Shown here: piece after piece, positions 2,748 through 52,720 of the stretch
Layout: each line of letters begins with the position of its first letter
Position numbering within the stretch: the first letter of the stretch is position 1
DNA from: Rapidithrix thailandica
GTDB taxonomy: Bacteria > Bacteroidota > Bacteroidia > Cytophagales > Flammeovirgaceae
Direction of reading: 5' to 3'
Assembly: GCF_039710355.1 (NCBI RefSeq)
Contig: NZ_JBDKWZ010000026.1
Coordinates: 1-64,000 of the forward strand
Length of the DNA stretch: 64,000 nucleotides
Translations under genes and position numbers: made by a program
The notes under the pieces: model-generated
What the model was told of the DNA's origin: nothing
Databases searched by the model: none
Seen by the model: the letters and a program-made list of their open reading frames with translations, nothing else

Positions 2748-3885
2748 AGCACTTATTCGCTTTTATCAATAATTTACAAGGCTTGAGGTTGAGTTTTTCT
2801 GATCTCTCCGTCCAAATTTACATCACGATACGGGTTTATTTACCCACGAAGCAAAATTTCATGAGTCCTCTATCGACACAGACAAGCCTTAATATAACAA
2901 TCAACCGACGAAAATTCTTTACTTGTAACAAGTAACGGGGCAGACAGGATGAATTGTAAAATAAAGTACTTTACCGAATGCCCTCAAACAAAAAACTTAC
3001 AAGAGAACAGTTAAGCGCAATCTGATTTTTGCCTATAAAGAACATTTCTCTTTTGCACAATCATGAAACATTGCAACAGCCAGATAAAGCAATACCATAT
3101 TATAGTTAATTTATATTAAATTAGCACATTGCACTTTTAATTCGCTTTTTGAATGAGAAGCCGCGAACAAGGGGCATATAGGGAAATGATCACAATTTGT
3201 AAGAAATAAAGGGTGTAAGCTTGGAAACCACCCTGCCTGACAAAGACTCCAATGACCTCTAATACGTTCTTTGATACTTAGCAGTACATTTTGGGGAAAA
3301 TGAACAAAATATGAACTTCTGTAAATATTTATATTTTTATGTAACCTCCGTATTATTTTTTCAGTAAAATAATAATGTGAATATGGTAGTAAAACAGGAA
3401 AGAATTCAGGGCAAACAAATTACGGCTACTCCTCTCATCATTCTTTTGCCATAGAAGTATTTAACAGAATTATTTTAATTCTTATTAATGATCGACAACA
3501 ATTAGATCTGTTTTAACTGCAATACGTCAAGTTTTGCAGATTGGAAAGTAAAAAGGCTTTCCCTTACCAAGGACATACTCTCATCAAACATCTTAAAATA
3601 GTGATAAATGGAGACGGACCCGTCTCATAGGGGAGTACTTTGTCATTCATTTCACAAAAAGAAAAGTAATTGTCATCATTCATACCAGAATCTTATAAAA
3701 CTTACGTTTAAAAACTTTTAACTAACAGTAATCTATGGATAAATTTTTTGTACGCTCAAGCTCCTCCGGAAAGGTCGGTTTTTTATACACACCCAAGGAG
3801 AAAAATCATTAAATACCGTATTGGGTCATTCATTGATAAAAAGAGGCTCACTCCTCTTCCGGAAATACTATGTCTAACTCTTTAA

Positions 3886-4530
3886 GTGAAGGTAATGGAA
3901 TTTTTAAAATATGCTTTAGAGTCAGTAAACCTGCCTTATACCTTTCTGATGATACTGATCTCGCTGTATTGGCTGGCTACATTTATTGGCATACTCGACC
4001 TCAGCAGTTTTGATTTGGATGCTGATGCAGATGTAGACATTGATGCAGATACAGACGTAGGTGTTTCCGGTGGAAGTGCTCTGAGTGGTGTACTACATTT
4101 TTTCCACATCGGTGAAATACCCGTTATGATCATCATCAGCTTCTTTGCCTTGTTTGCCTGGGTCGGGTCGGTCCTTGCCAACTATTACCTTGGCAATACT
4201 TCCTGGGGAATCGCAGCACTTTTAAGCATTCCGCTTTGTATCGGGAGTTTGTTGATCACCAAAGTGGCCTGTATGCCTTTTGTAAAAGTCTTTCAACACA
4301 TCAACAAGCCCGATGATATAGAGGTGGTAGGAAAGGTATGTACTTTACGCAGTCAGGCCGATGGGGAAAATATGGGCTTGGCAGAAGTAAAACTGGATGG
4401 AATCACCCAAACAGTATATGTAATTACTCACGATGGTTTGCCGCTTTCCAAAGGCGATCAGGCACTGGTGCTTCTGCGCAAAGAAAGCAAAAACTGCTAT
4501 GTGGTAGAGGCGTATCACGCTTCAATTTGA
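3886..4530 (+). CDS. yqiJ: YqiJ/NfeD-like inner-membrane protein (DUF1449-like), partner of flotillin
   Basis: 214-aa ORF. N-terminal TM helices with an acidic DADADVDIDADTDV loop, C-terminal soluble OB-like segment. Sits 55 bp upstream of a flotillin gene, as in the E. coli yqiJK arrangement. Confidence 0.6.
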   Translation: MKVMEFLKYALESVNLPYTFLMILISLYWLATFIGILDLSSFDLDADADVDIDADTDVGVSGGSALSGVLHFFHIGEIPVMIIISFFALFAWVGSVLANYYLGNTSWGIAALLSIPLCIGSLLITKVACMPFVKVFQHINKPDDIEVVGKVCTLRSQADGENMGLAEVKLDGITQTVYVITHDGLPLSKGDQALVLLRKESKNCYVVEAYHASI

Positions 4531-4585
4531 ATGAAACATTTTACTTATATCAAACTGAATTACAAATTTTTAATTTCTAAAACGT

Positions 4586-6643
4586 ATGCTTGGAGAAACT
4601 CTAATTATTATTTTGATTGTCGCTGCAGTCATTGTCTTTGGTACGATTGCCCTAGTCGCCAGTTTTTACAAAAAGATCCCACAGGGAAAAGTCATTGTCC
4701 GTACAGGGGTTGGCGGTTCTAAAGTCTTTTTTAACGGAGGGATGGTTGTACCAATATTGCACAGAATGGAAGTGATGGATATTTCCGTGCAGAATTTTGA
4801 AATTAACAGGGAAGGCAAAAACGGATTGATTTGTAAAGATCACCTCCGTGCAGATATACGGGTCGCATTCTTTGTGAGGGTCAACCGCGACAATGTGATG
4901 GATGTGGCTCAAGCTATCGGTTGCGAACGGGCTTCGGATACCAGTCTGTTGATTAATCTGTTTGAAGCAAAGTTTTCAGAAGCGCTAAAAACCGTGGGTA
5001 AACAATTCGACTTCATCGATCTATACAACTCCAGAGATGAGTTGAACAACATGGTCAGAAAAGCCATCGGTACCGATCTGAACGGATACATTTTGGAAGA
5101 CTGTGCCATTGATCACTTAGAGCAAACACCTCCTTCTTTCCTGGATCCCGACAATATTCTGGATTCCGAAGGTATCAAAAAGATTACCGAAAAAACGGCT
5201 GAACAAAAAATATTGGCCAACAAAATCCGGAACGATGAGGTGAAAACCATCAAAAAGCAGGATGTGGAAAGAAAGGAAGCCGTATTGGAATTGGAAAAAC
5301 AACAATCGGAAGCCGAAGAGAAGCAAAAAAGGGAAATTGCCAACATTCGCTCAAGAGAAAATTCTGCGGCCTCCATGGTAGAACAAGAGGAAAGGTTGAA
5401 AGCTGAGAATGCCCGTATCCGTGTAGATGAAGAGCTGGAAATTGCCAACCAAAATAAAGAACGGCAGGTAATCATTGCGCAAAAGAACAAAGAGAAAGTA
5501 GATGCGGTAGAGTCCGAGCGCCTGGAAAAAGAAAGAATGCTGGAAGAAACCGAAAGAGAAAAAATCGTTTCGCTGGCACAAATTGCCAAAGAAAAAGCGC
5601 TCGAAGAGGAAAAACGCAATATTCAGGATGTCATTAAAGAGCGGATCATTCTTGAAAAATCCGTAGTGGAAGAGCAAGAGAAAATCAAAGATACTCAAGC
5701 CTTTGCAGAAGCAGAGCGTCTCAAAAAGGTATCCATCACCAAGGCAGAACAAGAAGCCGAAGAAGAGTTACTGAAAGAAGTAAAATCTGCGGAAGCGCAA
5801 AGGCAAGCGGCTGAAATCAAAGCGAAACAAAAACGTATTGATGCAGATGCGGACTTCATGATTGCCGAAAAGCAAGCGGAAGCGACCAAAGTACTGGCCA
5901 AAGCGAAAGTGGAAGACGAAGCTGCCCAAGGTCTGGCCGAAGCCAAAGTGATCGAATCCAAAGCGCAAGCGCAGGAATTGCAGGCCACGGCCGATGCGAA
6001 AACCATCGAAGAAACCGCCATTGCAGAAGCAAAAGGAATGGAAGCCAAAGCTCAGGCCATCGAAAAACAAGGAATGGCCGAAGCCAAAGTGGCACAAGAG
6101 AAAGCCTTGGTGGAAGCACAAAGAATCAAAGCCGAAGCAGAAGCCAACAAATTGCTGGATGAAGCCGGTAGAGATTTGGAAGAGTTCCGCTTGAAATTGC
6201 AAATGGAAAAAGACTTGGAAATGGCAAAAGTCAACGTACAGAAAGACATTGCCTTGGCACAAGCCCAAATCATGAGTGAAGGCTTGAAAGCCGCCAACAT
6301 CGATATTGTGGGTGGAGATAGCATGTTCTTTGAGAAAATCATTCAATCCATTACCAGCAGCAAGTCCGTAGACCGGTTTGTCAATCACAGCCAGACGGTT
6401 CAGGAAATCAAACATAACTTGCTTGATTCTGAGAATGGCAACATGCTTGAAAATGTAAAAAACATGATTGCAAAATTTGGCTTGACCTCCGAAGATATTC
6501 GCAACCTGAGTGTATCCGCTTTGTTACTGAAGCTCTCCAGCTATACCAATGACAGCAAGGAGAAGAATATGTTGGAAAATCTGATGGAACACGCTAAAAA
6601 TACGGGCCTTGCCGATATACCGGTGAAGACCTTGGGTATCTAA
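4586..6643 (+). CDS. yqiK: flotillin family SPFH/band-7 protein (YqiK-like)
   Basis: 685-aa ORF. N-terminal TM helix, then an SPFH core (KIPQGKVIVRTGVGGSKVFFNGGMVVPILHRMEVMDISVQNFEINREG...), then a ~350-aa E/A/K/Q-rich coiled-coil flotillin tail and a C-terminal globular part. Confidence 0.85.
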   Translation: MLGETLIIILIVAAVIVFGTIALVASFYKKIPQGKVIVRTGVGGSKVFFNGGMVVPILHRMEVMDISVQNFEINREGKNGLICKDHLRADIRVAFFVRVNRDNVMDVAQAIGCERASDTSLLINLFEAKFSEALKTVGKQFDFIDLYNSRDELNNMVRKAIGTDLNGYILEDCAIDHLEQTPPSFLDPDNILDSEGIKKITEKTAEQKILANKIRNDEVKTIKKQDVERKEAVLELEKQQSEAEEKQKREIANIRSRENSAASMVEQEERLKAENARIRVDEELEIANQNKERQVIIAQKNKEKVDAVESERLEKERMLEETEREKIVSLAQIAKEKALEEEKRNIQDVIKERIILEKSVVEEQEKIKDTQAFAEAERLKKVSITKAEQEAEEELLKEVKSAEAQRQAAEIKAKQKRIDADADFMIAEKQAEATKVLAKAKVEDEAAQGLAEAKVIESKAQAQELQATADAKTIEETAIAEAKGMEAKAQAIEKQGMAEAKVAQEKALVEAQRIKAEAEANKLLDEAGRDLEEFRLKLQMEKDLEMAKVNVQKDIALAQAQIMSEGLKAANIDIVGGDSMFFEKIIQSITSSKSVDRFVNHSQTVQEIKHNLLDSENGNMLENVKNMIAKFGLTSEDIRNLSVSALLLKLSSYTNDSKEKNMLENLMEHAKNTGLADIPVKTLGI

Positions 6644-6652
6644 CCATCAGTA

Positions 6653-6725
6653 ACAGTTGTGCATTCAAACCGGCCCTTCGTAAACCTCCGGATGCCGGTT
6701 TGGATGCCGGCACAACTGTCTTTTT
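6653..6725 (+). terminator. long imperfect hairpin plus T-tract between the flotillin and giant ATPase genes (possible partial terminator or attenuator)
   Basis: acagttgtgc (6653-6662) pairs with gcacaactgt (6710-6719). The internal ccggc...gccgg region can also pair. Followed by cttttt. Confidence 0.4.
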
Positions 6726-6791
6726 AACCTGTTAGAACACTTCTTACAGTACTTAAAATTTGATAATGGTACTTATATTTATCATCTGCTA

Positions 6792-9700
6792 ATGGAAGAA
6801 AATTCAACACCACAAGCTTCGGAAGCGCCACAAATTGATGCGGGTACCTATGAGATCCTGAGGCAGAGGCTGAAGCAAAGTGGCAATACACTACAGGAAA
6901 AATTAAATCAACTCAACCAGGTCCGGAAAGATACCTTCGGAAATATCCCCACTACTTTACTTAAAAACGAGCGGATCAGTACGGAAAACAACTGTATCCC
7001 CCGTGATATGATTGCCGTTGGAGACCATTTCCTTTTTGGGTACAATGTGCATATCGGTTTAAAATCCGAAGTGGAAGTCTCCGATGTTTTCAGTGTGTAT
7101 CAATTCCGTTCGGAAGATCATAGTTTCCATCTAAAAGAGCTGTCACTATTATCTGACGAGCGTTTTTCCGAAGATTTCCGCCAACTCTACAAGTACTATA
7201 AACATACAACCTTTGCAAAATTTGTGGTTATCGGGCCACACCTTTATCTCAAGTTTCAGACTTCCAAAAACACCAACAGTGTAAAAGCTTTCAAGTTTTT
7301 AATGGAAGACGGAGAGCTACAGTACATCGACAACCGTAGCGACCATGAAATAAAATACCCGGAGCAACACGAACTGGAATGGAAAAGGGCCAGCCGTGAC
7401 CACCACCGGGAAGGGGATCACCCTCATATTTCCATTCTGGACAAGGTGTTTGTGGAAACTATTGGTGGTGACCTCACCATCAAAATTGAAGACAACACCG
7501 AGTCAGGCGAGGGAATTTATCAGGAAGAGGTCAGCCATCACGAGCAAACACTGGACGATGCGGAAATTTACTTTGCCGATTTGGGTAACTTGATCTTGCT
7601 GAAGATCAAGCCGTACATGGAAGAACATTTTCGCTTTTTCGTGTTTAACCACAAACTGGGCGAAGTACACCGGATCGACAGCATTAAAGACACTTGCGTA
7701 CTGCTACCCGATGAGCAGGGGATTATCTTTTCCCAAGGCTATTACTTGCAAACCGGAGAATTAAAGGTATATGACGAAAGCCTTACCGGAATGCGCTTTG
7801 AGAAAAAAATCATTTCTCCCAATGGAGAAGACTTTCTCTTTGTCTATTACAACCCGGCAGTAGGCGACTATGTTTTGCTCTCTTACAACAGGATAGAACA
7901 AGCTGTGGAAAGTCCGGTGACTTGTAGCGGTTTTTCCTTCTTCCGAAATGGAGAGTTGATATACTTCAGAGCTGACCACGAGCCTAAAAAGCACCATGCG
8001 CTTCAGCTTTGGCAAACTCCGTATGTACACCCTGACTACGAAGTCCCTACCCAAAACGAAAGCTATCTGTACAAGGTAGGAAACAAAGATATTGTAAGGG
8101 CGATGGCAGAATGTAACGAGTTGATGAAACTCTTACAAAAAGAAGATGCTTACGCCACCCTTTACCAGGATGTAGCCAAAAAATCCAGCGAGATCGGTGA
8201 CAGTTATTACTGGATCAGTCATGAGGAAGCCTATCAGATCGATACGGTTTTGACGGAAATCCACCAGAATGCCGTAGTGGCTATTGAGGAATTCGAAAAG
8301 GTAAGGAGAATAAAAAAGGCGACCCTCGAAGCCGTAGGGCAAATATCGCAGCAGGCAAAGGAGCTGATCGATAAGGTCAGAAGAAGACAATACAAGGAAA
8401 TAGATGATTTTGTGCAAACTCTTGCCAGCATTCGCAAACTTCGGGGAGACACGATCTCTTTAAAAGAACTGCGCTATGCGGATATTCCGGCCATTGAAGC
8501 TTTAGAGCAACAACTGGCCGAAAAAAATGAAGATGTTTCTCAAAAATGCGTACTCTTCCTTTTACAGGAAGACTCCTTACTTCCTTATCAGCAAAAAGTA
8601 GCCGGACAAAACGACAAGATCGAAGAGGTTAGTAAAGTCGCTGAAGCGGATGCCATTCAGGGGGAAAATGACCAGATCGGCCAGGAACTGGAAATGTTAA
8701 TCGAGATTGTCAGTAATCTTAAAATCGAAGATGCGACACAGACTACCGAAATCATCGATAGCATTTCCGACATTTATGCCTCACTCAACCAGGTAAAAGC
8801 CAAGTTAAAACAGGTGCGCAAAAACCTGTTGGGCACCGAAGCCAAAGCCGAGTTTGCGGCACAACTCCGCCTGATTGGTCAGTCTGTAGTCAACTACCTG
8901 GATGTAAGTGACTCTCCTCAGCGCTGTGAGGAATACATGACCCGGCTAATGGTACAATTGGAGGAATTGGAAGGTAAGTTTGCGGATTTCGATGAATTCA
9001 TCCCGCAACTGGCAGACAAAAGAGACGAAGTTTACCAAGCTTTTGAAAGTAGAAAACTCAACCTTGTTGAACAGCGAAACAAAAAAGCAACTTCGCTGCA
9101 AACAGCTGCCGAACGAATCTTAAAAAGCATTGAACACAAGGTAAAATCCTTTAAAGAGGTAAGCGAAATCAATGCCTACTTTGCCGCTGACATCATGGTG
9201 CACAAAGTGCAGGAAATGATTACGCAACTGCAATCGCTGGAGGATAACGTGAAGGCAGATGACTTGCAAAGTAAGTTGAATGCCACCAAGGAAGAAGCTG
9301 TCAGACAATTAAAAGACCGGAAGGATTTATTTGCCGAAGGTGAAAATGTCATCACACTGGGCAAGCACCGCTTCTCCGTGAATGTACAAGCCTTGGATGT
9401 GAGTCTGGTGCAACGTGACGGTGATTTGTATTACCACCTCTCCGGGACCAACTTCTTCGAAAAAGCGGATTTGGTTGACCATCAATTTCAGCCGGCCATC
9501 CTCACCCAGGAGATTGTTTCCGAAAACCGGGAGGTGTACCGGGGGGAATACTTGGCTTATCAATATTTGAAACAAATCAAGCAAGAGCAAACCTTGGACG
9601 CACATGCAGGCTTACCTGTAAAAGAGCTTGCGGAAAAAATCCAGGCATTTATGGCTCCTCGTTACCAAGAAGGTTATCAGAAAGGGGTTCATGATGCGGA

Positions 9701-11708
9701 TGCCGCCATTCTGCTTCAAAAGTTGATTGACTTGGAAAGCCGGATTGCCCTGTTGCGATTTACACCCGTAGCCCGCGCTTGTGCGGCTTTATGGTGGCAG
9801 GTATTTGCCGAAAACACGGAACAAGCCAACTCTAAAGAACTGTTGTTACACCGGATTCGTGGACAAGCAGTCATCAGAAAGCTTTTCCCTAATAGTGAAG
9901 ACCAGCAAGAGCTAATTGGCGATCTGGCTACAGAAATAGAGGCTTTTGTGGAACGTTCCGGATTGTTCTCACCTACTATTGTGGAAGATGCCGCTACCTA
10001 CCTGAGCCTTGAATTAGCGGAAAAAGACACCTTTACGATCAGTAGGGAAGCAGCCATCATCTATGAAGGATTTACCAATGACTTGCAAGCCAAAAATGCA
10101 AAAGAGGCCTATGTTCAATCGGTAAATGCGCTGAAAAACACGCCTGAAGATGCCTTTAGCCTGATCGTTGATTGGCTAAAAGCTTGGCTGCAAATGCAAC
10201 AAACAGAAGGCAAAGAACATCTGGCAAACAGCCTTGAAGAAGCGGCGGTACTGCTGTTCACCAATACCTTCAACAACCTAAATGTTTTGAATGTAGAAGT
10301 AGAACAGATGGTTGAAGGCTTGAGTGGCGAACATACTTCTATCGAAAAAGGGAATTACACACTCAATTATCACACTTTCATCGATAAACTTAAGCATTTT
10401 GAAACACATGTAGTCCCTGACTTCCTGAAATTTCAGTCGCTGAAGAAGTCGATGGTAGAAGATTTCCGCAAACAAATCAGGTTAGATGAGTTTAAGCCCA
10501 GAGTGTTGAGTTCTTTTGTAAGAAACCAATTGGTAGACCAGGTGTATTTACCCCTTATCGGAGATAACCTGGCCAAGCAAATCGGGGTGGTAGGCCATAA
10601 CAAGCGTACGGACTTGATGGGGATGCTCTTGTTAATTTCCCCTCCCGGATACGGGAAAACAACCCTGATGGAATACATTGCCAACCGGGTAGGATTGATT
10701 TTCATGAAAATCAACGGACCGGCTATCGGACACCAGGTCACTTCTCTCGACCCCGATGATGCCGGCAACGCCAGTGCCAGAGAAGAATTGAAAAAGCTCA
10801 ACCTGGCCTTTGAAATGGGTGACAATGTCATGGTGTACCTGGATGATATTCAGCACTGTAACCCGGAGTTTTTACAAAAATTCATTTCCCTTTGTGACGG
10901 TCAGCGTAAGATCGAAGGGGTATACAAAGGCGTGCCTCAAACCTATGATCTGAGAGGAAAAAGGGTATGTGTGGTAATGGCAGGTAACCCGTATACGGAA
11001 AGTGGAGAAAAATTCAGAATCCCGGATATGTTGGCCAACCGTGCAGATACATACAACCTGGGAGATATCATTGGAGATACGGAAGAACAATTCAGACTGA
11101 GCTATATCGAAAATGCATTGACTTCCAATCCGGTATTAACCAAACTGGCCGTAAGAAGTCGTAAAGATATCCATACCGTGGTTCGCTATGCGGAAACCGG
11201 AAACCGGGAAGGATTGGACTTCGAAGCCAACATGGAAGCGGATGAGCTCAACGAATATGTAGGGGTACTTTCTAAATTGCTCAAAATTCGCGATGCCATT
11301 TTGAAGGTTAACCTGAAGTATATTGAGTCGGCCGCACAAGCGGACGAATACCGTACCGAGCCTCCATTTAAATTACAGGGTTCGTACCGTAACATGAACA
11401 AGCTGGCCGAAAAAGTGATGCCGGTGATGAACGATAGGGAGTTACAAACCTTATTGCTCTCTCATTATGAAAACGAATCGCAAACGCTCACTACCGGTGC
11501 AGAAGCCAATATGCTGATCTTTAAACATATGATGAGTTGGTTGGATGAAACTTCTACCATGCGTTGGGAGGAGATCAAACAAGTATTTATGAAAAACCAA
11601 AAGCAAAAAGGCTATGGTAAAAACAATCAATTAGCCGCTTTATTGGAACAACTGGAAGGTTTTGCTGAAAACCTGAAAGGCATTAAAGAAGCCATTGAAA
11701 AGCGGTGA
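6792..11708 (+). CDS. giant (1638-aa) protein with a C-terminal AAA+ P-loop ATPase module (MoxR/AAA_5-like) and a central coiled-coil region; function unknown
   Basis: Uninterrupted 4.9-kb ORF. Walker A-like LLLISPPGYGKTTLMEYIANR (~aa 1275), Walker B-like NVMVYLDDIQHCNPEFLQKF, and sensor-like VCVVMAGNPYTESGEKFRIPDMLANRADT. Residues ~600-850 are heptad-rich. Same strand as and 148 bp downstream of yqiK. Confidence 0.7.
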   Translation: MEENSTPQASEAPQIDAGTYEILRQRLKQSGNTLQEKLNQLNQVRKDTFGNIPTTLLKNERISTENNCIPRDMIAVGDHFLFGYNVHIGLKSEVEVSDVFSVYQFRSEDHSFHLKELSLLSDERFSEDFRQLYKYYKHTTFAKFVVIGPHLYLKFQTSKNTNSVKAFKFLMEDGELQYIDNRSDHEIKYPEQHELEWKRASRDHHREGDHPHISILDKVFVETIGGDLTIKIEDNTESGEGIYQEEVSHHEQTLDDAEIYFADLGNLILLKIKPYMEEHFRFFVFNHKLGEVHRIDSIKDTCVLLPDEQGIIFSQGYYLQTGELKVYDESLTGMRFEKKIISPNGEDFLFVYYNPAVGDYVLLSYNRIEQAVESPVTCSGFSFFRNGELIYFRADHEPKKHHALQLWQTPYVHPDYEVPTQNESYLYKVGNKDIVRAMAECNELMKLLQKEDAYATLYQDVAKKSSEIGDSYYWISHEEAYQIDTVLTEIHQNAVVAIEEFEKVRRIKKATLEAVGQISQQAKELIDKVRRRQYKEIDDFVQTLASIRKLRGDTISLKELRYADIPAIEALEQQLAEKNEDVSQKCVLFLLQEDSLLPYQQKVAGQNDKIEEVSKVAEADAIQGENDQIGQELEMLIEIVSNLKIEDATQTTEIIDSISDIYASLNQVKAKLKQVRKNLLGTEAKAEFAAQLRLIGQSVVNYLDVSDSPQRCEEYMTRLMVQLEELEGKFADFDEFIPQLADKRDEVYQAFESRKLNLVEQRNKKATSLQTAAERILKSIEHKVKSFKEVSEINAYFAADIMVHKVQEMITQLQSLEDNVKADDLQSKLNATKEEAVRQLKDRKDLFAEGENVITLGKHRFSVNVQALDVSLVQRDGDLYYHLSGTNFFEKADLVDHQFQPAILTQEIVSENREVYRGEYLAYQYLKQIKQEQTLDAHAGLPVKELAEKIQAFMAPRYQEGYQKGVHDADAAILLQKLIDLESRIALLRFTPVARACAALWWQVFAENTEQANSKELLLHRIRGQAVIRKLFPNSEDQQELIGDLATEIEAFVERSGLFSPTIVEDAATYLSLELAEKDTFTISREAAIIYEGFTNDLQAKNAKEAYVQSVNALKNTPEDAFSLIVDWLKAWLQMQQTEGKEHLANSLEEAAVLLFTNTFNNLNVLNVEVEQMVEGLSGEHTSIEKGNYTLNYHTFIDKLKHFETHVVPDFLKFQSLKKSMVEDFRKQIRLDEFKPRVLSSFVRNQLVDQVYLPLIGDNLAKQIGVVGHNKRTDLMGMLLLISPPGYGKTTLMEYIANRVGLIFMKINGPAIGHQVTSLDPDDAGNASAREELKKLNLAFEMGDNVMVYLDDIQHCNPEFLQKFISLCDGQRKIEGVYKGVPQTYDLRGKRVCVVMAGNPYTESGEKFRIPDMLANRADTYNLGDIIGDTEEQFRLSYIENALTSNPVLTKLAVRSRKDIHTVVRYAETGNREGLDFEANMEADELNEYVGVLSKLLKIRDAILKVNLKYIESAAQADEYRTEPPFKLQGSYRNMNKLAEKVMPVMNDRELQTLLLSHYENESQTLTTGAEANMLIFKHMMSWLDETSTMRWEEIKQVFMKNQKQKGYGKNNQLAALLEQLEGFAENLKGIKEAIEKR

Positions 11709-11733: not shown

Positions 11734-11776
11734 AATCAGGCTATTGACGAAATTTTGTCGGTAGCCTGATTTTTTA
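11734..11776 (+). terminator. rho-independent terminator after the giant ATPase gene
   Basis: aatcaggcta ...loop... tagcctgatt followed by tttttt. Confidence 0.6.
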
Positions 11777-32247: not shown

Positions 32248-35151
32248 ATGAGGTTCTTCAATCAAGGGGTAGAATTAACGGAATACACGGATTCAATACC
32301 ATTACTGAAGTTTCATAAGAGACAGATGGTTTATGTTTTCCTGTTGTGCTTTGGTATGGGCATTTCTTTACAGGCCGCCGCTCAAGGTATCTCGCAACAA
32401 GACAGTATATTGTTGGATTCGCTTAATGCACAACCCGGCCGGCTTCTTCAAGACAGTACACAAGCAACAATTCTGGAAAGAGCACAGCAAATGCAAGTAC
32501 TGAACAAGTATCAAGAATGTCGTCACTTTTTAAAAAGTATCGAGGACGTAATTGACAAAGCCCCCTCTAAAAACGATTACTTTCAAGCCCGGATCCGGCA
32601 GCAATTAAGTACTACAGAAGCGCACATGGGTAATGCACAGGCCTGTTATCGTTATGGCAAACAAGTACTGTCGGCTTTTGAAAATTTACCGGAACCGGAT
32701 ACGGCTCTTTTAAGAAATAACTACCAAATCCTCGCTTCGGCAAGCAAGCAATTAGGTTACCGGGAAGAGGCCTTGCACTATTGCGACCGCTGGTTACAAA
32801 TGACTGATGAAAAGGAAACCCCACTGCAAAAAGCCCATGTATTGAACATGATGGGACTCATACATTCTCACTTATTTAACCAACGGGCTGCACAGGAATA
32901 CTTCCGGCAATGCTATGATCTCCGTGCGCAACATGCACCCGAATCGCTACCTTCCGTCATAAATGATATAGGCTTGATGTATTTACACTTTCAGCGCTAT
33001 GATTCGGCGATTGTATGGCTGAAAAAGGGTCTTGAGTTTCGCCATTCTAACCTGGATGAGCAGATTTTAATCCACGCCACATTATCGACACATATGTCAG
33101 ATGCCTATTTCCAACTGGGGAAAAAAGATTCTGCGTTACAGTATTCGGAAAATGCATTAGTCATACGGGCACAATACCAATCTCTTAAAGTAGATACGAT
33201 GCAAATGGCGGTGTTGGATCATATCGATATACTGATGAACTCCGAAAACAGACAACTGGCTCAAGCCTTTATTGAGGAGGTTACTCCTTTTATTCAATCA
33301 AATAAAAATCCTGCACTTGAAAGCCGCCTGTATGTCTCAAAAGCAAAAATGAGTATGCATTTTCAACAAGTGGACAATGCAATCAGATATTATAACCTTG
33401 CTCTTCACACCCTGGATACTTCCTTTATAAAAGGATCCGCTTTATTTCCCGATTCACTTTATATACCCCTACAACCTGACCTCTCTTTAATCAACACCCT
33501 GGAGAGCAAGGCGGATGCACTGGATCAACAATATACAGGTCAAAAAGACAAAACATTTCTGTTGGCCGCCATTGCCAATATGGAAAAGGCGGTGGAATAT
33601 ATGAACCGGTACATGTACAGGCACCCTGGCAGCATATCCGACCCGGTTGTTTATTACCATCAAAAAAGGCTGGTGGACAAAAGCCTTTCTCTATTGTATC
33701 AACTGTACCGGCTGGACAAAGAACAAGTTTCCTTACAAACCCTCTCCCGGTTGTTGGAAATAGAAAGGATCAATTCCGTTAGGAAAAACCTGATTTACCA
33801 ACAGTTGATTTTACAAAACCCACAAGCTGACAGCCTGCAAAAGGAATGGCAATACCTCAATGAAGCGCTAAGAATACAAGCAAGCCGAAACGCATCCGAT
33901 TCGTCTGTTACTTACGATTCCCTAACCGAAATACTCCACACGACCGATATACAATTTCAACAACAATTCGGTAACTATCACCGGTTGGCAATAGAAGAAA
34001 GTACGACCATTCCGGCACCCTTGCCCGGTTCGCTCTCTGAGAACAAAGCTTTGGTCCAATACTTTTTTGCAGGGGATGTATTGCATTGCATTTTTGCTAC
34101 CGGACCGCAATTTAAATGGTACGCCATCCCATGGGAAAGCGAGCAAAAAAAACTATTACATGAGGTACAGGTAATGCTGAGAAATCCTCAAGTACAGACG
34201 TACGACCGTTTAAGTGATTTGGGACGAGTTCTTCTTCCTTTTTTAAAGAACGTACAACCGGAAGAGTTGGTGATCATGCCCCATGGGCCATTGCATCACT
34301 TGCCTTTTGAAGCGCTGAAAATCCGCGAGGACTATTTAATACAGCACCATAGCATCGCTTATCTGCAAAGCTTGGCCAGAACCGCAGGCCCAGAGAGAAA
34401 GCCACGATATTTTTTGGGTTTTGCTCCCTTCTACTCCTCCGGTACAAAAACTTCCATCGGAAAGGTTGGTGTTGCGTATCACGCTCAACCCGTTTACCTG
34501 ACACTTCACAATAGTCAGGATGAAATCACCCTTACCGGAGGTTTTTTCGAAAGTTCGTACTTCCAAGGCCCACAAGCCACCGAATTCGCTTTCCGGCAAT
34601 CGTTAGCGAAACAGGATATCATCCACTTGGCGACCCATACACTCTTAGACGATGAAAATCCTTTGTTTAGCCGGATTCTTTTGGCAAAGGATTCCCTGCA
34701 CGATGGCAAGCTCTATATTCACGAATTGTTTACCTTGCCTTTACAAGCCCAGTTGGTCGTATTGAGTGCCTGTAACCAAATCAACCAAGACAAAGGGGAA
34801 GGACTCACTAGCCTGGCTACAGGCTTTTATATGGCAGGCGTCAACAAGCTAATGCTTACGCATTGGCCAGTACCCGAAGGAGAAAACACAGCGGTATTGG
34901 AAGACTTTTATAAACATTGGCGAAAGCAAGGAGAGGCAATGCCCCAGGCCTTACAAAGTGCCAAAAGGGAATACCTGACAACGAACGATGAGGCAAGCCA
35001 ACACCCTTATTATTGGGCGGGACTTGTATTACATCAAAACCAATATCTCTCAGACAAGGGGTTTGGCATCCCTTGGAAAACCCTATTCTCAATCATGGCA
35101 GTGCTTACAGGTCTCGCATTTTTGTTTATTTTTTACAAAAGACGTTCATAA
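32248..35151 (+). CDS. TPR-repeat + CHAT (caspase-like) protease domain protein with C-terminal transmembrane anchor
   Basis: 967 aa. The likely true start is the internal Met at 32326, giving a signal peptide (MVYVFLLCFGMGISLQAAAQG). TPR-like helical repeats in the N-terminal 600 aa. CHAT His/Cys dyad context (IIHLATHTLLDDENP ... LVVLSACNQINQDKGEG...TGFYMAGV). Terminal TM helix (LFSIMAVLTGLAFLFIFYKRRS). Confidence 0.75.
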   Translation: MRFFNQGVELTEYTDSIPLLKFHKRQMVYVFLLCFGMGISLQAAAQGISQQDSILLDSLNAQPGRLLQDSTQATILERAQQMQVLNKYQECRHFLKSIEDVIDKAPSKNDYFQARIRQQLSTTEAHMGNAQACYRYGKQVLSAFENLPEPDTALLRNNYQILASASKQLGYREEALHYCDRWLQMTDEKETPLQKAHVLNMMGLIHSHLFNQRAAQEYFRQCYDLRAQHAPESLPSVINDIGLMYLHFQRYDSAIVWLKKGLEFRHSNLDEQILIHATLSTHMSDAYFQLGKKDSALQYSENALVIRAQYQSLKVDTMQMAVLDHIDILMNSENRQLAQAFIEEVTPFIQSNKNPALESRLYVSKAKMSMHFQQVDNAIRYYNLALHTLDTSFIKGSALFPDSLYIPLQPDLSLINTLESKADALDQQYTGQKDKTFLLAAIANMEKAVEYMNRYMYRHPGSISDPVVYYHQKRLVDKSLSLLYQLYRLDKEQVSLQTLSRLLEIERINSVRKNLIYQQLILQNPQADSLQKEWQYLNEALRIQASRNASDSSVTYDSLTEILHTTDIQFQQQFGNYHRLAIEESTTIPAPLPGSLSENKALVQYFFAGDVLHCIFATGPQFKWYAIPWESEQKKLLHEVQVMLRNPQVQTYDRLSDLGRVLLPFLKNVQPEELVIMPHGPLHHLPFEALKIREDYLIQHHSIAYLQSLARTAGPERKPRYFLGFAPFYSSGTKTSIGKVGVAYHAQPVYLTLHNSQDEITLTGGFFESSYFQGPQATEFAFRQSLAKQDIIHLATHTLLDDENPLFSRILLAKDSLHDGKLYIHELFTLPLQAQLVVLSACNQINQDKGEGLTSLATGFYMAGVNKLMLTHWPVPEGENTAVLEDFYKHWRKQGEAMPQALQSAKREYLTTNDEASQHPYYWAGLVLHQNQYLSDKGFGIPWKTLFSIMAVLTGLAFLFIFYKRRS

Positions 35152-42504: not shown

Positions 42505-45500
42505 ATGAAAACAAACTTACCAGGTGTTCTATTCAGAATCAATAAATGTGCTTTGTATAGCATCGTGTTTCAAGTTCTGTTTCATTCATTTGCCATTGCC
42601 ACCGACAAAGTTTCCCCCAAAGAAAGCCTGGAAGAAATCACAACTTCCATAGGTTTTGATAAAGTAAAACTCGGAGAAGCTCTCCGGGTACTTGAAAAAG
42701 CTACCGGTTTTCAATTTACTTACCGCGAAAGCAAAATCCCAAAAACCACCGTCACGATTAAGAAAGAGAAAAGGTCTTTGGCCGATTTGCTCCGATCCAT
42801 TTCCGGGCAATCCGGAGTGGCTTTCAAACGGGTGGACAACATTATCTATGTAAAACCAATAGAAAAAGCCGGGGAAATCATTATAGAACTGCCCACGGAA
42901 AAAGAAGTAAGTATTTCAGGAAAAGTAACGGATGAAGGCGGAGAGCCCTTGCCCGGGGTCAATATCTTGGTAAAGCAAACGACCATTGGAACGGTGACGG
43001 ATATCGATGGCAATTACCGCTTAAGTGTACCGGAGGATGCAACCACATTAGTCTTTTCATCTGTGGGATACATGAGCAAAGAAGTGGAAATCAATCACCG
43101 GAAAGTGATTGATATGGTGATGGATACAGACACGAAAACGCTAGACGAGATTGTGGTCGTCGGATATGGAACACAGAGAAAAGTAAACCTCACAGGAGCC
43201 GTCAGCACGGTAAATACCGAAGAATTGGAAGGCCAGCCGGCGATCAATGTCGCCTCTTCACTGCAAGGACGTATGCCCGGGGTCTATATCACCCAAAGCT
43301 CCGGTTTGCCCGGGCGGGAAGGTGTGGATATATTGATCCGGGGAGTGGGCACGATGAACAATTCCAACCCCATGATTTTAATTGACGGGCTGGAGTCTAC
43401 ACAAGCCGCCTTGTCTGCCATCAATCCCAATGATATCGAAAACCTGAGTGTGTTAAAAGATGCCGCGGCAGCTTCTATTTACGGCACCCGGGCCGCCAAT
43501 GGAGTCATACTGGTGACGACCAAACGGGGAAAAGGCAAACCCACCATCTCGTATAATGCCAGCTTTGGCGTGCAAAAAGCCACCCGGCTTCCCGACCACG
43601 TATCTTCCGCAGACTATGCCCGCTTGTTAAATGAAGCCAATATCAATGAAGGAAAGGCCCCGATATACACCGATGATGAAATCCGGAAATTTGAAACCGG
43701 CGAAGATCCCTTTAACTACCCTAATACTGACTGGGTTGATCTAATGTTTTCCAAAGCAGGCTTTTATCACAATCATGATGTAAGCCTTTCCGGAGGAAGC
43801 GACATGTCAAAATACAGAATTTCGCTGGAGTACCTTGATCAGGATGGGATTATGGAAGTCAGCAATCACAAACGCTACAACCTGCGGATCAATCTCGACA
43901 ATAAAGTTACGAAGTGGTTGAACATGGGTTTGAATGCCAGTCTCACACACAATGACTTTTTGGAGCCCGTGCCTTCCATTCAGAACGGAGTGCGAGAGTT
44001 TTTCAGACAGGCCAATATGATCCCGCCTACTGTTGCCAACAAGTATGAGGATGGCACCTTTCAAGCCTGGTCCAATGGCAATCCTATTGCCTGGTTAGAT
44101 GCCGGAAGTAATTTACGAAGAAAAAACTACAATTTTTTAGGCAGTATTTTCGGAGAAGTAACCTTAATGGAAGGCCTTACCTTGAAAGGAATAATGGGTG
44201 CTAACTTTAGTCTGGATGATGACAAAAGACATAAAAAGGTAGTGCACTATGGAGACGGTACTACACAAGGCCCTACCCAAGTCACCGATGTCAACAGGCG
44301 CAACCGGACCATTTACTTACAGAGTTATCTCAATTATGAAAAAACCATCCGGGCCCATGAATTCAAAGTGATGTTGGGGGTTTCCAGCCAGTCGGAAGAG
44401 TACAATGAAAATTCCGCTTTCCGGAATAACTTTCCGTCCAACGAGCTCAATCAACTGGATGTAGGAGATATTGAAGGAATGCGCAACGGAGGAAATGCCT
44501 TTGAAGTAAAGCTCGCTTCCTACTTCGGGAGGGTCAATTATATTCTGGCAGGCAAATACCTTTTCGAAATCAACACCCGGATAGACGGCTCTTCAAAATT
44601 TGCACCGGATTACCGTTGGGGAACCTTCCCTTCATTTTCCGTTGGTTGGAGGGTTTCCGAAGAGCGTTTTATGAAAGCTATCAACTGGGTGGAAGAACTG
44701 AAAATCAGGACTTCCTGGGGAAAATTAGGAAACCACAACATCGACAACTATCTCTACATTGCCCGGTTTGCCCTCGGTCAAAACTACCCCTTTGGCGGAG
44801 GGATGCACAGCGGTGCCGCCCAAGTAGTTGCAGATGTTCCGGACATTAGCTGGGAAACATCCACCGAATTTAACATCGGAATAGATGCCGGCTTTTTCAA
44901 CAACAAGCTTTCTCTAAGTCTTGATTACTACAACCGCCTTACCGAAGATATTTTAGTCAATGTACCGGTATCCGTAGTGTATGGCCTGCCGGCCCCCACT
45001 GTCAATGACGGTTCTATGAGAAACCGGGGAATAGAAGTCTTATTGACTCACCGAAATGCCATTGGCCAACTGAACTACAGTGTCTCCGTAAACGGCACTT
45101 ACAATAAAAACAAAGTGATACGCCTGGCAAACCCCTCCAAAGGCGGTTTGATTCGAGTAGAAGGAGAACCCTGGAACTCTTACTTCGGATACGAACATAT
45201 CGGCTTTCATCAGACGGATGACGATGCAGATTCAGAACCGCATATTGCCGGCTTGCCAGTGAAAGCCGGAGACTTGAAATACAAAGACCAGGACGGCAAT
45301 GGTGTAATTGATGACAACGACCGGGTAGTGTTGGGAAATACCATTCCGGAATTTACCTACGGATTGAGTATTACCATGGACTATAAGGGCTTTGACCTCT
45401 CAGCTTTCTTTCAAGGAGCCGAAAAGGTATACCGTACCTTGGGAGGTAATATAGAATGGCCTTTTGCCGACGGAGGTTCTGCTTTAGCAGCCCATTTGGA

Positions 45501-45855
45501 CCGTACCCTTGTAGAAAACGGAGCCATTGTAAAAGAAGGACATTACCCCCGCACCTTATTGGGAGGACCCAGAAATCTCAATGCCCAGATGAGTTCTTTT
45601 GTCGTGCACGATGCCAGTTACCTCCGGATGAAAAACTTGCAGATTGGCTATAACCTTCCCAAAACACTGCTTGAAAAAATTCACTTGTCCAAAGCCAGGA
45701 TCTATGTAAGCGGACAAAACCTGTTCACCATTACTTCGTTTCCTTCGGATTTCGATCCGGAAGTGTATGGCGACTGGACCACTGCAAGCGGCTCGGCCAA
45801 CTACCGGTACCCTCAAGTGAAATTTTATATGATGGGATTCAATCTAACCTTCTAA
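42505..45855 (+). CDS. SusC/RagA family TonB-dependent outer-membrane transporter with N-terminal STN signalling extension
   Basis: 1116 aa. STN-like segment (LEEITTSIGFDKVKLGEALRVLEKATGFQFTYRE), CarbopepD_reg-like domain (VSISGKVTDEGGEPLPGVNILVKQTTIGTVTDIDGNY), plug (TonB box DEIVVVGYGTQRK), and a C-terminal beta-barrel ending in F. Confidence 0.9.
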   Translation: MKTNLPGVLFRINKCALYSIVFQVLFHSFAIATDKVSPKESLEEITTSIGFDKVKLGEALRVLEKATGFQFTYRESKIPKTTVTIKKEKRSLADLLRSISGQSGVAFKRVDNIIYVKPIEKAGEIIIELPTEKEVSISGKVTDEGGEPLPGVNILVKQTTIGTVTDIDGNYRLSVPEDATTLVFSSVGYMSKEVEINHRKVIDMVMDTDTKTLDEIVVVGYGTQRKVNLTGAVSTVNTEELEGQPAINVASSLQGRMPGVYITQSSGLPGREGVDILIRGVGTMNNSNPMILIDGLESTQAALSAINPNDIENLSVLKDAAAASIYGTRAANGVILVTTKRGKGKPTISYNASFGVQKATRLPDHVSSADYARLLNEANINEGKAPIYTDDEIRKFETGEDPFNYPNTDWVDLMFSKAGFYHNHDVSLSGGSDMSKYRISLEYLDQDGIMEVSNHKRYNLRINLDNKVTKWLNMGLNASLTHNDFLEPVPSIQNGVREFFRQANMIPPTVANKYEDGTFQAWSNGNPIAWLDAGSNLRRKNYNFLGSIFGEVTLMEGLTLKGIMGANFSLDDDKRHKKVVHYGDGTTQGPTQVTDVNRRNRTIYLQSYLNYEKTIRAHEFKVMLGVSSQSEEYNENSAFRNNFPSNELNQLDVGDIEGMRNGGNAFEVKLASYFGRVNYILAGKYLFEINTRIDGSSKFAPDYRWGTFPSFSVGWRVSEERFMKAINWVEELKIRTSWGKLGNHNIDNYLYIARFALGQNYPFGGGMHSGAAQVVADVPDISWETSTEFNIGIDAGFFNNKLSLSLDYYNRLTEDILVNVPVSVVYGLPAPTVNDGSMRNRGIEVLLTHRNAIGQLNYSVSVNGTYNKNKVIRLANPSKGGLIRVEGEPWNSYFGYEHIGFHQTDDDADSEPHIAGLPVKAGDLKYKDQDGNGVIDDNDRVVLGNTIPEFTYGLSITMDYKGFDLSAFFQGAEKVYRTLGGNIEWPFADGGSALAAHLDRTLVENGAIVKEGHYPRTLLGGPRNLNAQMSSFVVHDASYLRMKNLQIGYNLPKTLLEKIHLSKARIYVSGQNLFTITSFPSDFDPEVYGDWTTASGSANYRYPQVKFYMMGFNLTF

Positions 45856-45862
45856 ACATCCG

Positions 45863-47446
45863 ATGACAATGAAAAAATATATATGCATATACATGGCTAT
45901 CATCGTACTTAATGCCTGTACTACGGATTACCTGGATGTATCGCCCTTAAATGAGGTTTCCGATGCAACTTTTTGGAAGACCGAAGAAGATGCGGAATTG
46001 GCCTTGGCCGGATGTTACAATATGTGGGAAACCTGGAGTAACATTATCTTTCTGGATGCCATGAGCGACAATGCCTACGATCAGCATTTTGCCTGGCAAT
46101 TGCTTGGGAACGGCCAATTCCTGCCTTCTACCTATTTCCCCAATTGGTACGACTCCAATACAGCCCGTTGGTTTTTGTACACTAAAATCAGAAAGTATAA
46201 CAGTTTTTTGATAAAAATTGACGGAGTAGAAATGGATGAAGATCTGAAAGAACAGTACAAAGCCGAAGTCCGTTTCCTCAGGGCTTACGACTATTTCAAC
46301 AAAGCCATGTTCTACGGAGACATTCCTTTGGTCACAAAAATATTGCCACCGGATGCCATTGTTGCACGAACGCCTGTTGCGGAAGTCAATCAATTTATCT
46401 TAGAGGAATTAGCAGAGATCAGCACGCTGTTACCGGCACAAAATAACATTGCATCGGGAGGGCATATTACTGCCGGTGCGGCCCTTGCTTTAAAAGCCCG
46501 CTTGGAATTGTACCTGGGTATGTACGAAGAAGCTATGGAAGATGCGCAAAAAGTCATAGACATGGATTATGAATTGTATCCGGACTACAGGAACCTGTTT
46601 TTACCGGGTAACGGAGAAAATAACAAGGAAGCGATTTTACAAATTAACTATATCAAAAACTTCATTCCCAATCGCTTTTTCCCTCAGTTATTTATGCCCC
46701 GGACAGAAGGGGGTTGGTCTACTCTGAATGGCACCAAAAGTTTGGTCGATACCTATGAAATGCTCAGTGGCAAACCCATTGACGACCCTACTTCCGGCTA
46801 TGATCCGGATCAACCTTTTGCCAACCGCGACCTCCGGCTGGCCATGACCTTGAACTATACCGGGCAAGAATGGAATGGCAGGTACTACAACGCCTTGGAT
46901 CAATTTCTACCGGATGGCAGTAAAAACCCTGATTATCACAACGAAGGAAATGCCTCCCGGGCAGGAATGAATATCAAAAAATATATCAAACCGATTTCAT
47001 TATCTGACAACCAACTGTACGATGTCAATGTACAGGTCATCCGGCTGGCGGAAATGTATCTTACCTATGCCGAAGCCGCGGTAGAACTGGGCAAAAATAC
47101 CGACTATGCCCTTACCTTGATTAACCAACTGAGAGACAGAGGGGGACTACCACCTGCCGCCAACCTCACCCAGGCATTGGTGCGCAGAGAAAGAAGGGTA
47201 GAATTGGCCTTGGAAGGTTTGAGGTTCTTTGACATCAAACGATGGGACATCGGTGCTACAGCACTGAATGGCCCTGTATACGGCAGCCCTTTGGGTTCCT
47301 TGAACTATAACACCGGTGAAGTAACCTGGTCTTCCGAACTCATCAAGCTAGAAGACCGCACTTTTTATCCCGAACGAAACTATCTGTTGCCTATTCCGCT
47401 CTATGAGATTGATGTTTCCGGCATGACACAAAACCCTGGTTATTAA
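45863..47446 (+). CDS. RagB/SusD family nutrient-binding outer-membrane lipoprotein
   Basis: 527 aa. Lipoprotein signal (IVLNACTTDY). SusD-like TPR helices (RFLRAYDYFNKAMFYGDIPL; IRLAEMYLTYAEAAVELGK). Immediately downstream of SusC. Confidence 0.9.
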   Translation: MTMKKYICIYMAIIVLNACTTDYLDVSPLNEVSDATFWKTEEDAELALAGCYNMWETWSNIIFLDAMSDNAYDQHFAWQLLGNGQFLPSTYFPNWYDSNTARWFLYTKIRKYNSFLIKIDGVEMDEDLKEQYKAEVRFLRAYDYFNKAMFYGDIPLVTKILPPDAIVARTPVAEVNQFILEELAEISTLLPAQNNIASGGHITAGAALALKARLELYLGMYEEAMEDAQKVIDMDYELYPDYRNLFLPGNGENNKEAILQINYIKNFIPNRFFPQLFMPRTEGGWSTLNGTKSLVDTYEMLSGKPIDDPTSGYDPDQPFANRDLRLAMTLNYTGQEWNGRYYNALDQFLPDGSKNPDYHNEGNASRAGMNIKKYIKPISLSDNQLYDVNVQVIRLAEMYLTYAEAAVELGKNTDYALTLINQLRDRGGLPPAANLTQALVRRERRVELALEGLRFFDIKRWDIGATALNGPVYGSPLGSLNYNTGEVTWSSELIKLEDRTFYPERNYLLPIPLYEIDVSGMTQNPGY

Positions 47447-47871
47447 ACTACAATTCCCTTGAAGCAAGAGAAAGGGAGTGTTGGGTGGTTAATAAAACAC
47501 ATATAAGTCGGTACCTATAATTAGAGAAAAGTAAGAATGTTAGCCACTTCAACCTTCCTTTCCTTGATAAGAAAAAACAAGCTTGTCAAGCGCTTTTTGC
47601 AATTATAAATCAACTAACTTCCTCTCCTTGGTCAGGGGCATATTTACAAAAGGTAATTAGCAAGGGGGCTAGAACAAACCCTTGTACAACCGTTGATTTC
47701 ACAGCCCCCTTTGCCCTTTTCTATATAGGAGGGGAAGTTTTGAACTTATTTTTTCAGGAACCTGAACCAGGGATACCGATGGACCTTAATCCGTTTGAAA
47801 AGATTTGTTCTACCAACCAAATAGCCAATTCCAGACTTCTCTAAATATTTTACCATTGCATCAACATCAGT

Positions 47872-49179: not shown

Positions 49180-49216
49180 ATACAACAACATTTATTTCAT
49201 CAACCCGGTAGAGACT

Positions 49217-51061: not shown

Positions 51062-51162
51062 CAGCACAAAACGGCAATAGAAAGGCCTTTCACTATTCAA
51101 AAAACCTTCAAGGGTTTTAGCGATTAACTATGGATCATCTACTTAATAACCATTTATGAATC

Positions 51163-52632: not shown

Positions 52633-52720
52633 ACCAACAGTTTCCCTCTTTGATTTGTAAAGAGGGAAACGTAACTTTTATCTCTCTGAACATCAGCACA
52701 CTTCACCAGAAATAAACACC

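Follow-up and report, generated by a model that had tools for sequence, protein, structure and literature searches.

A flotillin-linked giant AAA+ ATPase in a conserved three-gene cassette of Rapidithrix thailandica, and a candidate role in membrane-scaffold remodelling

We analyzed a 64,000-nucleotide stretch of Rapidithrix thailandica DNA (contig NZ_JBDKWZ010000026.1, positions 1 to 64,000), hereafter the window, which carries a cassette of three genes encoding a YqiJ-like membrane protein, a flotillin and a very large AAA+ ATPase. The three genes follow one another on the same strand:

3886..4530, + strand: gene 1, a YqiJ/YuaF-type (divergent NfeD) inner-membrane protein, 214 amino acids counted from a GTG start
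4586..6643, + strand: gene 2, a flotillin (SPFH2/YqiK-like) of 685 amino acids
6792..11708, + strand: gene 3, a DUF3686/DUF7902/AAA family protein of 1638 amino acids

The intergenic gaps are 55 bp between gene 1 and the flotillin gene and 148 bp between the flotillin and ATPase genes. The 1138 bp located 5' of gene 1 (2748-3885) contain no open reading frame (ORF) of at least 60 amino acids on either strand. This layout of three co-oriented ORFs, with an upstream spacer of about 1.1 kb and a terminator downstream, was confirmed at the coordinates given by a first-pass annotation of the same DNA. The true start of gene 1 is more likely the ATG at 3895 than the GTG at 3886, because the ATG aligns with the called start of the orthologue in Chondrinema litorale.

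We profiled the gene neighborhoods of related ATPase genes and found that the third gene is a conserved partner of the other two, a possibility raised by the first-pass annotation. A total of 80 genome loci were fetched, and the 63 with at least 3.5 kb of upstream sequence were used for the linkage count. A yqiJ-flotillin pair lies directly 5' of the ATPase gene, on the same strand, in 60 of these 63 loci (Bacteroidota, Planctomycetota and Polyangia). Among loci from a plasmid collection, a flotillin gene is immediately 5' in all six (Pseudomonas fluorescens pQBR103, Proteus mirabilis, Vibrio campbellii, Deinococcus grandis and two Streptomyces), at 34-42% identity, and the Pseudomonas and Proteus loci also showed a YqiJ-like gene. 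The reverse look-up gave the same picture, with a DUF3686 gene downstream of 4/4 sampled flotillin homologues (Kaistella, Flavobacterium, Dysgonomonas and Flammeovirga). The closest relative, Chondrinema litorale, has the same trio. The three genes are inherited together in at least six phyla. Spacing between yqiJ and the flotillin gene is mostly 1-11 bp in relatives (55 bp here), and spacing between the flotillin and ATPase genes ranges from 24 to 3060 bp, with unrelated genes inserted in some loci. Identity is near-equal between phyla (51-56%), which suggests horizontal transfer. The closest match in the genome collection, a metagenome-assembled genome labelled Thalassovita sp. (PBYL01000252.1), is 87% identical to the ATPase. 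This contig is probably mis-binned, because its label is alphaproteobacterial (Thalassovita/Thalassobius) and the other close relatives are Cytophagales-type Bacteroidota.

Many of the related loci also encode PspA, the bacterial homologue of ESCRT-III. In about half of the relatives (29-34 loci), genes for a CesT_Tir_1/YbjN-like protein and a PspA_IM30 protein stand just 5' of yqiJ. The PspA gene is on the same strand and within about 1.1 kb 5' of yqiJ in most of the 34 PspA-bearing loci, the exceptions being L021, L051 and L054. At 29 loci, a gene for an HTH_3 plus Peptidase_S24 protein is divergent from the CesT-PspA-YqiJ-flotillin-ATPase cluster (for example L008 3894-4691, L089 5201-5950 and L090 5141-5887); no such gene is present in the window. 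HTH-S24 proteins are of the LexA/CI-like self-cleaving repressor type, and their presence therefore hints that RecA or stress controls the full operon. In Kaistella carnis (CP034159.1; L089 10172-16013), the ATPase gene is split by a DDE transposase gene of an insertion sequence (IS) into a 1240-amino-acid N-terminal ORF and a 393-amino-acid AAA ORF, with the CesT-PspA-YqiJ-flotillin genes upstream intact. This strain is a natural knock-out that can be compared with its relatives.

Operons of this kind were reported by Ravi et al. (mSystems 2024, PMC11237479; preprint 2020), who described CesT/Tir-PspA together with YqiJ/YuaF, Band-7/flotillin and a 'β-propeller + coiled-coil + AAA-ATPase' protein. 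The same study noted that abbreviated operons, made up of Band-7/flotillin, YqiJ/YuaF and in some cases the ATPase, have a wider distribution, with PspA possibly encoded elsewhere, and its supplement shows the same architecture, including the divergent cHTH+protease gene, in Dokdonia donghaensis (ANH61663.1). ATP-dependent remodelling was also already raised there from gene context (PMC11237479). The first-pass annotation had regarded the combination of flotillin and giant ATPase as not a described system; this has to be withdrawn, since the arrangement, including its PspA-less form, is in Ravi et al. The locus is another member of a computationally described operon type and adds no new kind of system. 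Targeted literature searches returned only this comparative study and general SPFH/ESCRT literature, and neither DUF3686 nor PF12458 occurs in any paper of the library searched. On plasmid pQBR103 of P. fluorescens SBW25 (L081 84437-97641), the trio ends a yjfI-pspA-rhomboid-DUF2491-DUF350-DUF1190-glutathionylspermidine synthase cluster. The pQBR103 cluster, carried on a well-studied megaplasmid, merges two PspA operon classes that Ravi et al. treated separately, and it is a genetically tractable test bed.

The first two genes were annotated at first pass as a yqiJ/yqiK-type pair, and domain and BLASTP matches establish that this pair is real. The gene 1 product matches YqiJ_N in Pfam (E 3e-7) and aligns with Escherichia coli YqiJ over nearly its full length (24% identity, residues 15-208, E 6e-6). 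Three hydrophobic segments, predicted to be transmembrane (about 19-37, 80-98 and 109-127), are followed by a C-terminal soluble part. In the C-terminal part, where NfeD partners of the YqiJ/YuaF type carry an OB-fold β domain, residues 119-214 match no Pfam family, and the BLASTP alignment to YqiJ runs through residue 208. YqiJ and YuaF are divergent NfeD homologues and partners of SPFH2 flotillins (PMC2636767). The gene 2 product corresponds, at 100% identity, to 'flotillin family protein [Rapidithrix thailandica]' at NCBI and aligns by BLASTP with E. coli YqiK (28% identity over about 410 residues, E 5e-41). It gave no match to Pfam when scanned whole at full length, and residues 1-238 scanned alone match Band_7 (E 1e-14). 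Most database homologues of this flotillin likewise have no precomputed Pfam domain, and automated annotation may under-call the SPFH domain in this subfamily. The flotillin divides into four parts:

residues 6-24: N-terminal transmembrane helix
residues ~30-200: SPFH/Band_7 domain
residues ~200-560: coiled coil
residues ~560-685: C-terminal region

The coiled coil (200-560) is rich in E, A and K (19% E, 17% A and 14% K). The bulk of the flotillin fits a cytoplasmic location, because two lysines (KK) come right after the transmembrane helix.

The large protein corresponds to 'DNA repair ATPase [Rapidithrix thailandica]' at NCBI (100% identity), and its scored homologues number more than 5,700. 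Its Pfam matches are DUF3686 (E 8e-186, residues 34-473), DUF7902 (E 8e-28, 594-677) and AAA (E 5e-7, 1279-1399). Bacteroidota, Acidobacteriota (Sulfidibacter) and Desulfobacterota have full-length homologues at about 50-87% identity. When residues 1-1190 were searched against 1.84 billion cluster representatives, a family of 433 representatives (50%-identity clusters) came out at E <= 1e-30, among which the architecture of 1600-1900 amino acids is preserved down to about 26-30% identity. No hydrophobic, transmembrane-like segment was found in the protein, which points to a soluble protein. We modelled it with AlphaFold2 as two overlapping halves, with a predicted local distance difference test score (pLDDT) of 81.9 for the N-terminal half and 80.7 for the other. 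The predicted domains and the motifs of the AAA+ module are as follows:

6954..8021, + strand: N-terminal β-propeller, residues ~55-410, preceded by a long helix at 15-49 (AlphaFold2, pLDDT mostly 85-92)
8064..9326, + strand: long antiparallel helices, residues ~425-845, with single helices of up to 58 residues (AlphaFold2)
9348..10226, + strand: small β domain, residues ~853-891, and all-helical domain, residues ~917-1145 (AlphaFold2)
10518..11486, + strand: single AAA+ module with extra C-terminal helices, residues ~1243-1565
10638-10664: Walker A motif SPPGYGKTT, residues 1283-1291
10827-10847: Walker B motif VMVYLDD, residues 1346-1352, with the acidic pair DD, not DE
residues 1373-1386: β-hairpin preceding sensor 1
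residues N1399, R1417 and R1533: sensor 1 (in MAGNPY), candidate arginine finger and candidate sensor 2 (GSYRN)

The propeller probably has seven blades, because about 27 strands are predicted. The helical region contains DUF7902 (594-677; 8571-8822) and corresponds to what had been called a heptad-rich region at first pass; no solved relative of it was found by sequence or fold. The small β and all-helical domains match no Pfam family and form the least conserved part of the protein, with 50-residue-window conservation down to 0.20-0.33 at residues 1001-1200. Model confidence is lowest at residues 841-910 (pLDDT 42-66) and mostly 73-92 beyond residue 970. In the PDB, searches by single sequence and by profile found similarity only at the P-loop region, over about 40-70 residues around Walker A (best p97/VCP and RuvB), and nothing in the N-terminal 1240 residues. 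The Foldseek search of the N-terminal model against the PDB, which the first-pass annotation had proposed, was run and gave only generic propeller matches (TM-score <=0.13 query-normalised, <=0.36 target-normalised), so this part has no informative structural relative. Matches to IFT-A, nucleoporins, clathrin and Sec12 are generic propeller or propeller-plus-helical ones only, and a protocoatomer relationship was not adopted.

The three motifs quoted at first pass (SPPGYGKTT, VMVYLDD and MAGNPY) are all present in the C-terminal P-loop module, whose model is confidently assigned to the AAA+ fold. Residues K1289/T1290, D1351-D1352, N1399, R1417, R1521 and R1533 are each kept in at least 97% of 70 diverse representatives, and conservation of the AAA+ core is about 80-87%. 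The conservation of the catalytic residues and of R1417 argues for an active, oligomeric ATPase. The module differs from the classic AAA clade (Cdc48/p97, Vps4 and FtsH), which is characterised by no pre-sensor-1 insertion, an aromatic pore loop 1 and no sensor-2 arginine. Between β2 and α2, no conserved aromatic pore-loop motif was found; the conserved sequence there is NGPAxGH…DP. A pre-sensor-1 hairpin is present, and the model shows no evident helix-2 β-hairpin insert. The module belongs to the AAA+ groups with a pre-sensor-1 hairpin and is nearest to the MoxR type, by a modest margin. The earlier suggestion that it is not a classic AAA module is thus upheld in part, given that modest margin and the missing VWA partner. 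In Pfam, AAA (PF00004) outscores AAA_5, which lies exactly at its cut-off.

We searched the spacers and flanks of the genes for non-coding elements and found the following candidates:

3318-3347 and 3461-3489, + strand: two short non-coding blocks within the 1.1-kb upstream spacer
6653..6719, + strand: long, imperfect hairpin with CUUUUU behind it, beginning 10 nt past the flotillin stop; a candidate for an intrinsic terminator or an attenuator
11734..11771, + strand: intrinsic-terminator-like hairpin (promoter/terminator scan), 17-bp stem and 4-nt loop followed by TTTTATTT, 26 nt after the ATPase stop

RNA folding gave -36.1 kcal/mol for the hairpin at 6653-6719 (z = -5.5, with 0/200 shuffles as stable). 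It was missed by the consensus terminator scan, probably because of the scan criteria, which admit only simple hairpins with loops of 3-8 nt. It is not found in the orthologous Chondrinema spacer, and terminator-like hairpins just past the flotillin stop were counted in 30/64 related loci by our own crude hairpin-plus-T-run scan, which had no chance control. The presence of a strong hairpin and U-run directly after the flotillin stop weakens the inference of a single operon, which is uncertain. The one-operon view of the first-pass annotation was accordingly not sustained, given this hairpin in the 148-bp spacer, its counterparts in relatives, the variable gap and the inserted genes. The hairpin and the variable flotillin-ATPase spacer suggest instead that yqiJ and the flotillin gene are a tight transcription unit and that the ATPase gene is expressed by read-through or from its own promoter. 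Neither spacer contains a + strand match to the Bacteroidetes-type -7 motif (TAnnTTTG), whose window-wide count equals chance, and a σ70-type promoter scan was likewise at chance level.

Identity to the Chondrinema litorale spacer (L088 6497-6526 and 6641-6669) is 30/30 in the first upstream block and 28/29 in the second; the distance between the two is conserved at about 144 bp, and the rest of the spacer has diverged. The second block holds a perfect palindrome, AGAATTA-TTT-TAATTCT (3466-3482). The blocks are absent upstream of yqiJ in other related loci, and neither a conserved small ORF nor an Rfam match was found in the spacer. Operator, promoter and small RNA are all conceivable identities for the two blocks, which are only tentatively assigned to the system. 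Decayed PspA, CesT or HTH-S24 genes were also sought in the 1.1-kb spacer, and the best tblastn E values (0.01-0.1) were at chance level.

The genes flanking the cassette are on the opposite strand and unrelated to it (DUF4180, SDR, cNMP-binding, LRR, GNAT and two ORFs without a significant Pfam match). Elsewhere in the window, positions 42505-54607 hold a polysaccharide-utilisation-type locus, unrelated to the cassette, with a SusC-like TonB-dependent receptor (42505-45855), SusD (45863-47446) and GDSL lipase-like, GH141-like β-helix, α-L-fucosidase and apiosidase-like proteins. A 967-amino-acid TPR plus CHAT (caspase-like protease) protein at 32248-35151 is also unrelated to it.

We interpret the cassette, with somewhat better than even confidence, as a membrane-scaffold module with a dedicated cytoplasmic AAA+ motor, in other words an ATP-driven remodeller of flotillin and/or PspA assemblies. 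By analogy with solved SPFH complexes, the flotillin, anchored by its N-terminal helix, would form with the YqiJ-like protein an oligomeric dome or ring on the cytoplasmic face of the membrane. The large protein would oligomerise through its AAA+ module, with an inter-subunit active site suggested by R1417, the invariant candidate arginine finger. It may bind the flotillin assembly, and PspA where present, by its propeller and its helical arms, so that ATP turnover would drive the assembly, opening, disassembly or recycling of membrane-bound polymers under envelope stress. The functional analogy would be to Vps4 acting on ESCRT-III, or to FtsH inside HflK/C. Because a conserved aromatic pore loop is missing and MoxR-type proteins are the nearest structural neighbors, we think a conformational remodeller or an assembly chaperone more likely than a processive unfoldase. 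The hairpin after the flotillin gene could ensure that the structural pair is made in excess over the ATPase. The membrane-remodelling or envelope-stress role suggested at first pass fits the PspA linkage in about half of the relatives. Ravi et al. drew the same inference from gene context, and the SPFH-PspA precedent and the apparent absence of a bacterial Vps4-like regulator, both cited below, also speak for it.

Several observations weigh against this remodeller interpretation. Three of the 63 loci have no flotillin pair nearby. A binding function for the propeller and the helical arms is purely conjectural, because the N-terminal 1200 residues have no informative structural relative. The DD pair in Walker B is unusual and might mean slow or regulatory hydrolysis. 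Expression of the ATPase gene may be independent of the pair, because terminator-like hairpins, long spacers or unrelated genes often intervene. A tblastn search found no PspA or CesT gene in the window, upstream spacer included. The literature searches found no experimental study of any family member, be it of interaction, ATPase activity, localisation or phenotype. The idea that a C-terminal extension of the flotillin, absent from YqiK, is the docking site of the ATPase was dropped as unsupported: the last ~100 flotillin residues have no YqiK counterpart by BLASTP, yet a global alignment spreads YqiK to residue 660, and the partners from Pseudomonas, Proteus, Deinococcus and Vibrio showed no detectable similarity to the flotillin C-terminus.

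Two other explanations keep the ATPase at the membrane and change its substrate. The large protein may act mainly on PspA (ESCRT-III-like) polymers as a Vps4 analogue, with flotillin and YqiJ only recruiting it or organising the membrane site. The CesT-PspA dyad directly upstream in about half of the relatives, and the PspA gene on pQBR103, would fit such a role. There is also precedent for recruitment, as SPFH proteins link PspA with the Bacillus subtilis membrane and SPFH genes co-occur with archaeal ESCRT/Vps4 loci (Makarova et al., PMC10936438), and a 'missing Vps4' question, as a Vps4-like regulator of PspA polymers is apparently absent in bacteria (2025 review, PMC7619361). However, flotillin is the invariant partner, and no PspA gene is adjacent in Streptomyces, Deinococcus, Chondrinema or the window. 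The large protein also has no MIT-like domain, its AAA+ module lies outside the Vps4/classic clade, and we consider PspA as the main substrate improbable. We think it equally improbable that the ATPase is a quality-control extractor or chaperone for client membrane proteins in flotillin domains, with the scaffold itself not remodelled. FtsH-HflK/C and p97-Erlin would be the models for it, but the protein is soluble, with no membrane anchor, and it has neither a protease domain nor a conserved aromatic pore-loop motif.

The remaining explanations place the ATPase outside membrane remodelling. As a conflict module (anti-phage or abortive infection), the ATPase would sense infection and the membrane proteins would be the effectors. 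This would be in line with family members on megaplasmids and linear plasmids, the horizontal transfer suggested by near-equal identity, the CI/LexA-like repressor gene often divergent from the operon and the IS-split gene of Kaistella carnis. The defence role, which the first-pass annotation had also allowed for, found no backing from the searches: PADLOC-DB 2.0 gave only TRIP13 (E 0.0046, 35 residues at the P-loop), no phage homologue or recognisable effector enzyme domain was found, and the neighbors in the window are ordinary opposite-strand genes (SDR, cNMP-binding, GNAT and DUF4180) with no defence-island context. The cassette also recurs in many Pontibacter and Hymenobacter species, and about 55% identity across phyla, with the still higher conservation of the AAA+ core, is very high for a protein of 1600 residues and is by general expectation unlike fast-evolving defence genes. 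We therefore regard a conflict function as quite unlikely. Least probable of all, to the point of being very remote, is that the large protein is a DNA-repair ATPase whose adjacency to flotillin is incidental. That name is an inherited label only (Pfam DUF3686 'ATPase involved in DNA repair' and NCBI names), to which one could add weak RuvB_N/RuvB matches at the P-loop and a LexA-like repressor in some relatives that could hint at SOS control. The RuvB similarity covers only about 45-70 residues around Walker A and scores 20-23 bits, where the cut-offs are 282-299. Domains of the DNA-binding, nuclease or SMC/ABC type were not detected (no SMC_N, AAA_23 or SbcC match), the consistent, bidirectional linkage is with membrane-protein genes and not with repair genes, and the library searched offers nothing on the family under its Pfam names. 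The database label is unsupported and is a mislabelling.

Returning to the remodeller interpretation, a narrower form of it can be proposed only tentatively, and we hold it to be rather unlikely as it stands: the DUF3686 AAA+ protein would be the missing factor that uses ATP to disassemble or recycle bacterial flotillin cages and, if they are co-encoded, PspA/ESCRT-III polymers. As such a disassembly factor it would be a non-homologous counterpart of Vps4, with a MoxR-like rather than a classic AAA core and a propeller-plus-helical-arm adaptor. For the control and disassembly of bacterial flotillin and PspA/Vipp1 assemblies, this family, large, strongly conserved, flotillin-linked across phyla and mislabelled, offers a testable candidate for an ATP-dependent regulator. 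If the proposal is true, what would be new is the demonstration and the specific mechanism, since the idea of ATP-dependent remodelling precedes it. What the present locus contributes is a quantified linkage, a domain map, an assignment of the AAA+ module to a clade and an internal terminator-like element that possibly uncouples scaffold and ATPase expression.

Compared with known systems, the first two genes are homologous to E. coli yqiJK and B. subtilis yuaFG(floT), in which the gene order is identical and the spacing likewise tight. Downstream of yqiK, E. coli K-12 has the sibD/ibsD loci and no ATPase gene, whereas the cassette here has one, and the ATPase-linked flotillins are longer (a median of 719 amino acids versus 553). 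Proteins of the MoxR family (NorQ, CbbQ and RavA) work with a VWA/MIDAS partner, whose gene usually lies close by. The locus has no VWA partner gene, and no VWA domain was found by Pfam among the conserved neighbors (the three most widespread clusters of the 80 related loci and the window neighbors). The large protein further differs from MoxR proteins in its 1240-residue N-terminal extension and its DD Walker B. The operons of Ravi et al. share the three products, their order and their orientation with the locus in the window, where neither the CesT/PspA dyad nor the repressor gene of the full operon is present. The locus is of the abbreviated form, and any PspA partner would therefore be encoded elsewhere. 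That study was purely computational, left the AAA+ module unclassified and does not use the Pfam DUF names in the text and supplement searched (PMC11237479). The same logic as in the proposed module, a membrane-bound oligomeric scaffold served by a ring ATPase, is found in HflK/C-FtsH and in ESCRT-III-Vps4.

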